Shown here piece after piece: positions 31,796 to 37,753 of a DNA stretch of 64,000 bases (its first letter is position 1; every line of letters starts with the position of its first letter). Under the pieces are notes generated by a model. The model had not been told where the DNA came from. It did no database searches and worked only from the letters and a program-made list of their open reading frames with translations. Location of the stretch: NCBI RefSeq assembly GCF_055900595.2, contig NZ_CM148325.1. One strand, given 5' to 3'. The translations under genes and the position numbers were made by a program.

Positions 31796-31854
31796 TTAAT
31801 TTGTTGTCTCATGAGGTTTCGCTAAATCTCATGAAGAGCGCAAAAGTATATAAA

Positions 31855-31879
31855 ATCCACGCAATTGCGTGGATTTTTC
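31855..31879 (+). terminator. Intrinsic terminator after ychF
   Basis: ATCCACGC-AATT-GCGTGGAT palindrome followed by TTTTTC; A-run upstream makes it potentially bidirectional. Confidence 0.65.
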
Positions 31880-35606: not shown

Positions 35607-37526
35607 TCATACCCGGCGCTTAAACTGCCCTGCATCAATGCCATGTTGCTTCATTTTCCGCCACAGCGTAGTGCGGCCGATTCCAAGTAAAGCCGACATT
35701 TCCTGAATGCGACCGCCTGTGACCTGGGCTGCGTTAATAATTGCCTCTTTTTCAACTTCCGCAAATGACAGACTGGTGGAAAGGCGAGTGGCGCTGACAT
35801 CATCTGTCGCCTGCTCGGTAAACAGATGTTCAGGCAAATCACTGACGCGAATGCGCCCGTTATCACTACTCAGAGCAAGATTCTCGATGACGCTGTAAAG
35901 TTCAAAATCGTTGCCTGGCCATGCACAAGAAACCAGGCGAGCGAGGGCATCGTCATCAATTTTCAGACGCGTAGAGAAGCGTTTTTCAAGACTGCGTAAT
36001 TTGTTATTCACCAGCGCCGGAATGCTGCCACGCCGCATACGCAGAGGCGGGATGGTAATTTCAAATGCATGCAGCGCGTAATACAGCTGGCGACTAAAGC
36101 GATTTTGTTCCACCAGCATTGCCAGGTCCGCGGTCGTTGTGGCAATCACTTTGACATCAATTGGTATTAAACGCCGCGCATCCAGTCGCGTGATAACACC
36201 CTGCTTGATAACCTGAAGCAAAGCAGACTGTAACTCCACCGCCAGATATTCAATCTTTTCAAGAAACAGCGTGCCGCCGTGCGCCAGTTCCAGTCGACTC
36301 AGACGACCATTTTCATTGTCCGTGCGATCGCCGCCAATAAATTCTTCCGCCAGCGCCGCATCACCATATAACTCACAATTGACGGCGATGTAGGGACCTG
36401 CTGCACGCTCACTTTCATTATGAATTGCCTGACTTAGCAGTGCCTTGCCTACGCCCTCTTCGCCACAAAGCAAAACAGGAAAGCTACTACGCGCCGCCTG
36501 GCGGCCAAAATGAATCAAGCGGCGAGTTTGCGGATCGTCCTGTGGCATATGAGCGAAGGTATGGCTGACTTTTCCCAATTGACTGGTCATCAACTGCCGC
36601 ATCTGTTCCACGGGATGGAGCAACAAAATAAAGCTGGTTCCCTGCGTTTCTATTATCGGTTTAAGGGTTATCACCGCATCAATAAACTGGTGCTGACTTT
36701 CAAAGGTTGCTTCTACGTGTTTGAGCGGATGTGCCTGTTTTATTGCTTGTTGCAATACAGCGGGTAACGTTAAGAGTTCAGTGATCGCCCTTCCCTGACT
36801 TGCCGTCGCGTCAAGGCGCAAGACCCGCGCCGCCTGGGCATTGATAAATTGCAAATTACCCTGCTCGTCCCAGCTAATCACGCCATCGTCCATACTTTCC
36901 AGCAAGGCGTTAAGTTGATTTAAATGTCGGTTTGTTTCAGCCAGTAAATTGTCGGTCAGCAGTAAATTTCCGACCTCGCGTGCGATTGCCAACGTCAACG
37001 GCAAATCAGCTGCGGTAGTTTGCTCAACCGGACACGCCAGCGCTATTGTTCCCGTCAATCGGCCCTTGCTGTCAAACAACGGTGTTGCACAAAAGGCCCA
37101 GTTCCAGAGTGCCTGTTTGAAATGTTGATCGGCCATCGTTTTCACGGCCTGACCAGAGATAGCCGCTAACGATAGCGCACAGGTACCAATAATTCCCTCT
37201 GCGCAATACGTGCCGTCATTGAATCCCAGGACGCTAAGCTGGTGCAGCGTTTGTGGATCACCAAAACGACTAAGGATGCAGGCGGTTTCATCAAGGATGA
37301 ACAGTCCGCACGCCCGCGATTCCATATATTCCCAGGCATCTTCCAGCGCAGCCTGCCCGAGCGTCAGCATCACTTTCTTACGCCGATAGATAGAAGCAAA
37401 TGTCACGCCCTGGGCCTGGTGCGGTACGCTCCATGTCTCCCGTTTCATCAGTTTATTGCATCGCTCCCAGGAGGCTGCAATTAAGGGAGATATGCCCCGT
37501 TCATCGTTGTTAAAAGCGCCACTCAT
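35607..37526 (-). CDS. dhaR: Sigma-54-independent PAS/AAA+ transcriptional activator of dihydroxyacetone kinase genes
   Basis: 639 aa from MSGAFNNDERGISPLIAASWERC; GAF/PAS, AAA+ (GEEGVGK) and C-terminal Fis-type HTH. Confidence 0.9.
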   Translation of the reverse strand: MSGAFNNDERGISPLIAASWERCNKLMKRETWSVPHQAQGVTFASIYRRKKVMLTLGQAALEDAWEYMESRACGLFILDETACILSRFGDPQTLHQLSVLGFNDGTYCAEGIIGTCALSLAAISGQAVKTMADQHFKQALWNWAFCATPLFDSKGRLTGTIALACPVEQTTAADLPLTLAIAREVGNLLLTDNLLAETNRHLNQLNALLESMDDGVISWDEQGNLQFINAQAARVLRLDATASQGRAITELLTLPAVLQQAIKQAHPLKHVEATFESQHQFIDAVITLKPIIETQGTSFILLLHPVEQMRQLMTSQLGKVSHTFAHMPQDDPQTRRLIHFGRQAARSSFPVLLCGEEGVGKALLSQAIHNESERAAGPYIAVNCELYGDAALAEEFIGGDRTDNENGRLSRLELAHGGTLFLEKIEYLAVELQSALLQVIKQGVITRLDARRLIPIDVKVIATTTADLAMLVEQNRFSRQLYYALHAFEITIPPLRMRRGSIPALVNNKLRSLEKRFSTRLKIDDDALARLVSCAWPGNDFELYSVIENLALSSDNGRIRVSDLPEHLFTEQATDDVSATRLSTSLSFAEVEKEAIINAAQVTGGRIQEMSALLGIGRTTLWRKMKQHGIDAGQFKRRV

Positions 37527-37619
37527 ATCCCGCATCCTTTGTGACAAAAGGTGTTCCGGCTCGCAATTTTTAGTATTAAAACGCGTAAAAGTTTCAATAT
37601 GGAACATTCATTAAAACAT

Positions 37620-37638
37620 ATGTTTCACCATGAAACAT
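37620..37638. promoter_or_regulatory. Perfect 8-3-8 palindrome in the dhaR–dhaK divergent promoter region (candidate operator)
   Basis: ATGTTTCA-CCA-TGAAACAT, 116 bp upstream of the dhaK start. Confidence 0.35.
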
Positions 37639-37753
37639 AATTTGGGCTAATTTTCTTTTCCCTTACCTGATGCACAATGGATTTATCGGCAGTCAGTGGT
37701 CGCCGTGTCGTTGAACATCATCCATGCCCTACCGTAATTGCTGGAGCAAGATA

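Follow-up and report, generated by a model that had tools for sequence, protein, structure and literature searches.

The window analysed here, a stretch of 64,000 nucleotides (64 kb), contains an intergenic gap of 227 bp (37527..37753) between two divergent genes: dhaR, which codes for a regulator of the GAF-PAS-AAA+-HTH_8 architecture, and dhaK, which heads the operon of the PTS-dependent dihydroxyacetone kinase. This layout, on which the preliminary description had based its reading of a palindrome in the gap, is borne out by RefSeq annotation and Pfam alike. The window is E. coli DNA: a 501-bp probe around the palindrome is matched at 100% identity by E. coli strain 2013C-4282 and at 95.6% by K-12, and the probe region is found in 5,383 of 5,426 complete E. 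coli genomes; the gene coordinates collected in Table 1 were carried over from the RefSeq record identical across this probe. A program-made list of open reading frames puts the start of dhaR further upstream, at the ATG at 37607 (666 aa), that is, at the CAT which ends box 1 (37605-37607). Since the annotated start is at 37526 (639 aa), this extension is an artefact of ORF calling.

Table 1. Genes and sequence elements of the dhaR-dhaK region, in window coordinates
Feature	Position	Strand	Description and basis
dhaR	35607..37526	-	639 aa; RefSeq annotation of the matching record and Pfam GAF, PAS, Sigma54_activat, AAA_lid, HTH_8
Candidate -10 of dhaR	37566..37571	-	AAAAAT (TAAAAT in K-12), in the conserved block AAAATTGCGAGC
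Box 1, distal for dhaK, proximal for dhaR	37589..37607		imperfect dyad AAGTTTCAATATGGAACAT, 2 mismatches to the 19-mer
Box 2, dhaK-proximal	37619..37639		perfect 9-3-9 inverted repeat TATGTTTCA-CCA-TGAAACATA
T-rich tract ATTTTCTTTT	37650..37659	+	+21..+30 from the centre of box 2; -35/spacer region of the inferred dhaK promoter
Candidate -10 of the dhaKLM sigma-70 promoter	37673..37678	+	CACAAT; NANAAT conserved in 51 loci
dhaK	37754..38824	+	RefSeq annotation of the matching record and Pfam Dak1
dhaK-dhaL-dhaM operon	37754..40896	+	PTS-dependent dihydroxyacetone kinase, the regulated target; RefSeq and Pfam Dak1

The palindrome had been described as a perfect 8-3-8 inverted repeat at 37620..37638. 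The sequence, ATGTTTCACCATGAAACAT, is there as stated, and a repeat search adds one pair per side, which gives the arms of box 2, TATGTTTCA at 37619-37627 and TGAAACATA at 37631-37639. Its core, GTTTC-ACCAT-GAAAC, spans 37622..37636, with the dyad centre at 37629. A related element was also correctly noted about 30 bp upstream, but it is not the half-site it had been taken for: box 1 is a complete second dyad, with the core GTTTC-AATAT-GGAAC at 37591..37605 and its centre at 37598, 31 bp from that of box 2. Within the 64-kb window, the exact core GTTYC-N5-GRAAC occurs in two places only, which are boxes 1 and 2.

The DhaR-dhaKLM system of E. coli is already known, and the circuit of K-12 differs from the one in the window in nothing of substance: genes, divergent layout and the arms of both boxes are the same, and 217 of the 227 intergenic positions are identical. 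The two boxes, 37589..37639, correspond to about 1250953..1251003 of MG1655. The sole difference in box 2 is the base at the dyad centre (37629), a C in the window strain and a T in K-12. Since 172 of the 176 boxes compared below have A or T there, the spacer of the window strain is unusual, though its box is otherwise perfect. Inverted repeats in the dhaR-dhaK region were reportedly shown by Bächler and colleagues, and are presumably listed in RegulonDB/EcoCyc.

Conservation was followed in 80 dhaR loci, one genome per species across Enterobacterales, collected via alignment of the DhaR N-terminal domain. A first search for homologues of this domain returned mostly truncated or frameshifted proteins, and the locus search used four hand-cleaned sequences; all loci having been gathered through dhaR, every locus compared carries this gene. 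In the 563 kb covered by these loci, GTTYC-N5-GRAAC has 146 exact matches, against about 2 expected. This enrichment, of about 70-fold, is strictly positional: all matches but one lie in dha promoter regions, the exception, from K. oxytoca, being located 5' of a dhaT-like operon. The fetched flank includes a dhaK homologue in 51 loci, among them those with the ATP-dependent type of the Citrobacter freundii group, and each of the 51 has two boxes in tandem upstream of dhaK. Of 86 tandem pairs across taxa, 45 are spaced by 31 bp and 40 by 32 bp, together 85. Measured from the start codon, the proximal box lies 109-198 nt 5' of dhaK in the 51 loci; on the other side, Escherichia, C. amalonaticus, Kosakonia and Phytobacter have a box 65-68 nt 5' of the dhaR ATG.

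The consensus of the boxes is A-Y-GTTYC-R-T-W-A-T-GRAAC-A, that is, two inverted GTTYC half-sites with 5 bp between them, where the GTTYC and GRAAC positions are fixed by the search pattern and the remaining ones were free. Within Escherichia, substitutions spare the half-site cores, while flanks and spacers vary: other species of the genus feature TGGTTCCGTTATGGAACAT at the position of box 1, altered in sequence but with the core retained. Symmetry is conserved much less. Over positions 2-9 from the dyad centre, most of the 176 boxes have 4-6 symmetric positions out of 8, and full symmetry is reached by just 2, both of the E. coli lineage; the perfection of the palindrome is thus a local accident, and the conserved property is the presence of two GTTYC half-sites at fixed spacing. 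The check proposed earlier, conservation in orthologous promoters, came out in favor of the operator reading: the core is present in 51 of 51 loci as well as in Serratia.

The motif had seemed to be absent from Klebsiella, Citrobacter freundii and Serratia when the strict 19-mer was sought in the 600 bp 5' of dhaR. This is an artefact of where the search was made: matches in that scan are limited to loci in which dhaR directly adjoins dhaK, while a scan of whole loci with the core motif finds boxes adjoining both dhaK and dhaD in the Klebsiella and C. freundii types. In loci of this kind (Klebsiella, Raoultella, Enterobacter and the C. freundii type) dhaD/gldA and, after it, dhaR form an operon which diverges from dhaKLM, and this operon, dhaD(gldA)-dhaR, has a second pair of boxes before it (for example at 1318-1603 of locus L020; L009-L053). 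Of 38 loci, 30 have an inner distance of 219-223 bp between the dhaK pair and the dhaD pair, the others one of 116, 192, 213, 235 or 252-255 bp. With 10.5 bp to the turn, all these distances come near an integral number of helical turns; the loci being phylogenetically related, this is only suggestive of a loop mediated by DhaR.

The exceptional box of K. oxytoca, ATGTTTCATTATGGAAC (L020 6766-6780), is a single exact one, placed 5' of a convergent operon for a Fe-alcohol dehydrogenase (dhaT-like) which adjoins dhaR; it is consistent with the control of dhaT by DhaR reported for Klebsiella. In Serratia, where a longer contig was scanned, boxes GCGTTTCATCATGAAACGT and ATGTTCCATAATGGAACAA, 32 bp apart, precede gldA-dhaKLM, about 4.5 kb from dhaR. 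In Serratia marcescens (L083 2938-2984) the two boxes lie about 140-175 nt 5' of gldA, in front of an operon gldA-dhaK-dhaL-dhaM, and dhaR (L083 7428-9377) is convergent, its 3' end overlapping the dhaM stop by 4 nt. Because the Serratia pair stands before the kinase operon and far from dhaR, the boxes are seen to track regulated promoters, not the position of dhaR. The ptsA-fsaB-gldA region of MG1655 (L087, 4134000-4146000) contains no exact core, and two matches with 1 mismatch are at chance level; unlike in Klebsiella-type genomes, the glycerol dehydrogenase gene of E. coli does not appear to be under the control of DhaR boxes.

A scan of positions 37400-37900 for promoters and terminators found no consensus sigma-70 promoter and no terminator, and the dhaK promoter was located from cross-species conservation instead; failure of a consensus scan fits, as expected, a promoter dependent on an activator. 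All 51 loci have a NANAAT hexamer (CAGAAT, CACAAT, GAGAAT etc.) past the proximal box; its distance from the box centre is 44 nt in 44 loci and 45 nt in the other 7. The T-tract region contains 8-11 T per 16 nt in 49 of these 51, with an ungapped column consensus aTTTTtTTt. Were CACAAT the -10, the dhaK transcript would start at about 37685, and boxes 2 and 1 would be centred at about -56 and -87, respectively; being three helical turns (31 bp) apart, they would face the same side of the DNA.

On the dhaR side, box 1 is followed, in the orientation of dhaR, by the block AAAATTGCGAGC, which is shared by Escherichia and Citrobacter amalonaticus-type loci and probably contains the dhaR -10 and transcript start, the latter predicted near 37559. 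With the -10 at its candidate position, the -35 region of dhaR would coincide in part with box 1. Such an overlap would be consistent with the MG1655 annotation of the protein as 'DNA-binding transcriptional dual regulator DhaR', and would account for the autorepression reported for dhaR. A second block, GACAAAAGGTGTTCCG (37543-37558), is unchanged in six Escherichia lineages, where neighbouring bases vary; it includes a single GTTCC half-site, and its place, directly 5' of the ribosome-binding site, is in the presumed leader of dhaR.

The presumed reader of the boxes is DhaR itself. All 80 orthologues, whose overall identity ranges from 50 to 100%, share the recognition helix of its HTH domain, IGRTTLWRK (a few loci have S in place of G), and this invariance parallels that of the DNA core. 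The GAFTGA loop, through which sigma-54 is contacted, is absent from DhaR and from all 80 orthologues, and no -24/-12 element (GG-N10-GC) is found on either strand of 37527..37753; both results agree with published accounts which, in outline, have DhaR act at a sigma-70 promoter under the control of DhaK and DhaL. In the circuit of Bächler et al. 2005 (EMBO J 24:283), as summarised there, DhaK is the corepressor and DhaL::ADP the coactivator of DhaR. A full-text literature search, whose reach did not extend to that paper, returned no DhaR footprint and no sequence of a DhaR site.

Before the palindrome is assigned to DhaR, other origins have to be weighed. Under a Markov-1 model, 64 kb should contain about 2.8 perfect inverted repeats with arms of at least 9 and a spacer of 0-10, and 19 nested matches, corresponding to about 10 distinct repeats, mainly GC-rich and terminator-like hairpins, are present in the window; by itself, the palindrome is therefore merely mildly unusual. 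At least two matches to the 19-mer, if 3 mismatches are allowed, are likewise obtained in 6 of 100 shuffles. These figures would suit a functionless chance match in AT-rich intergenic DNA, a reading to which we give next to no credence: a second copy with at most 2 mismatches within +/-60 bp, here at three-turn spacing, has P ~1e-4 given the local base composition, and the positional enrichment over orthologous loci in effect refutes it. It is also very unlikely that the repeat acts as a nucleic-acid structure, either by cruciform formation under supercoiling or as a hairpin of the dhaR or dhaK leader RNA, working as attenuator, terminator or stability element. A weak hairpin, with a 9-bp stem closed by a 3-nt loop, is indeed predicted for both strands (-7.4 kcal/mol; z = -2.4 and -2.0 relative to shuffled sequences), but its stem is rich in AU and without a T-run, and a dhaK start about 45 nt 3' of the palindrome would leave the latter outside the dhaK mRNA. 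The rarity of fully symmetric boxes speaks against pairing as well, and of 142 exact boxes, 84 have non-complementary bases at the variable positions Y(-4) and R(+4), a bias away from pairing (Fisher odds ratio 0.48, p = 0.04). Paired positions thus do not covary, which points to a protein site and not to a hairpin. Membership among intrinsic terminators or structured RNAs was rejected: no terminator-like site was found, an Rfam search of the palindrome gave no match at E<=1, and Watson-Crick covariation is missing at the variable positions.

A protein other than DhaR might, however, be the one bound. Signals of several regulators fall in the dhaR-dhaK intergenic region: YgfI/DhfA, of the LysR type, and YneJ/PtrR by ChIP-exo (PMC9068703), NtrC as a low-resolution peak of genomic SELEX (PMC8743547), and AppY by ChIP-seq, with a summit at MG1655 1250957 which maps to about 37635 of the window, on box 2 (PMC10057817). 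The palindrome would accordingly be the operator of one of these, or of a factor of the Cra/LacI type, on dhaKLM, and DhaR would bind elsewhere. In its favor, TTTCA-CCA-TGAAA formally satisfies the loose LysR rule T-N11-A, as would any odd-spaced dyad. One half of the palindrome, TGAAAC, moreover coincides with the Cra half-site. The details, however, make this improbable. The site predicted by the authors for YgfI/DhfA at dhaK, GATGCACAAtGGATTC, maps to 37669..37684, 30 bp 3' of the palindrome, which was rejected as a member of that class of sites. The AppY motif ATGSCWGM is missing from the palindrome, and no function was given to the AppY peak; PtrR sites, of the TTCACGAATCGAGAA type, are unrelated, and their authors saw no similarity at dhaK; in the Cra arrangement, TGAAAC|GTTTCA, order and spacing of the half-sites are opposite to those of the boxes. 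Finally, boxes recur across genera at every DhaR-linked dha promoter (dhaK, dhaD and the dhaT-like operon), in step with the invariant DhaR helix, and the exact core is absent from the ptsA-fsaB-gldA region of MG1655. YgfI/DhfA, PtrR, AppY and NtrC are all unlikely binders of the palindrome. The mapping of several unrelated regulators to these 227 bp may reflect true co-regulation or sticky AT-rich DNA, and the predicted YgfI/DhfA site overlaps the inferred -10 of dhaK.

We thus favor, with a probability of about 85%, the reading of the palindrome as the promoter-proximal one of two tandem DhaR binding boxes which would control dhaKLM. The palindrome had been put forward from the start as a candidate DhaR operator, and both the phylogenetic footprint and the promoter geometry lend strong support to this proposal. 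The boxes lie in the control region between dhaR and dhaKLM; homologous ones precede dhaK, dhaD-dhaR and the dhaT-like operon in relatives; and a dyad suited to a dimeric HTH is found in 51 of 51 dhaK-linked loci and in Serratia, alongside a recognition helix unchanged in 80 of 80 proteins.

In the mechanism that we propose, the C-terminal HTH domains of DhaR, which are of the Fis type, would bind each box as a dimer, and the 31-bp spacing would place two such dimers, or one higher oligomer, on one face of the DNA. The promoter, of the sigma-70 type with a weak -35, would then have the boxes at about -56 and -87. As to the switch, which is taken from published genetics and biochemistry, DhaL::ADP would displace DhaK from the sensing domain of DhaR, and DhaR, already bound, would activate the dhaKLM promoter. 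Box 1, about 70 bp 5' of the dhaR start codon, probably covers the -35 of the divergent dhaR promoter. These elements can be combined, tentatively and with well under an even chance of being right as a whole, into a shared bidirectional module of a sigma-54-independent AAA+ regulator: the same-face oligomer would activate the sigma-70 promoter of dhaKLM from about -56 and -87, with the T-tract between box 2 and the -10, and occlude the dhaR -35, while in relatives with two pairs a loop would coordinate dhaKLM with dhaD-dhaR. To our knowledge, neither the strict geometry of the boxes nor the helical phasing has been described; the fixed distance from box to promoter and the helically phased second pair of the relatives may therefore be new.

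Among known systems, the closest in architecture are the boxes of TyrR, another AAA+ enhancer-binding protein homologue without GAFTGA, which activates or represses at sigma-70 promoters. TyrR boxes (TGTAAA-N6-TTTACA) are palindromic, 18-19 bp long, often found as adjacent pairs and linked by oligomerisation. Likeness to the DhaR boxes is confined to this palindromic, paired architecture and to the type of regulator: both half-site and spacing differ in TGTTTCA-N3-TGAAACA (GTTYC-N5-GRAAC), and membership among TyrR boxes was rejected, as TGTAAA-N6-TTTACA is not matched. The signals differ as well, DhaR reading the proteins DhaK and DhaL via GAF-PAS and TyrR reading aromatic amino acids via ACT-PAS. 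The two regulators have also been grouped together (PMC8743547). Upstream activating sequences of sigma-54 enhancer-binding proteins, such as those of NtrC at glnAp2, are likewise tandem same-face dyads, read by an AAA+ regulator with a Fis-type HTH. DhaR boxes, at about -56 and -87, are nearer to the promoter than typical sigma-54 enhancers, and a conserved -10-like hexamer is found here; identity with a sigma-54 enhancer was rejected for want of both GG-N10-GC in the intergenic gap and GAFTGA in DhaR and its orthologues.

If the assignment is correct, two boxes would be identified as the cis-element in a textbook case of 'trigger enzymes', where kinase subunits, DhaK and DhaL, act back on the regulator of their own genes. 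The consensus (tandem GTTYC-N5-GRAAC boxes spaced by 31-32 bp, with the -10 following after 44-45 nt) is suited to annotating DhaR regulons in Enterobacterales, including the dha regulons of industrial Klebsiella and Citrobacter, which convert glycerol to 1,3-propanediol. Its significance outside annotation is little, although the fixed geometry offers a modest lead on how AAA+ proteins without GAFTGA may activate sigma-70 RNA polymerase.

Two minor observations concern other loci. In Yersinia frederiksenii (L069, and likewise in the Yersinia loci among L056-L079) a DhaR-like gene lies between a pair encoding sucrose-6-phosphate hydrolase and a LacI-type repressor, and pemA; a scan of the whole locus found neither dha kinase genes nor boxes, and the encoded protein, 52% identical, has the same recognition helix. 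Elsewhere in the window, a perfect palindrome with 13-bp arms, AAAATCCACGCAATTGCGTGGATTTT (31852-31877), located about 58 nt past the stop codon of ychF, is probably the terminator of this gene.
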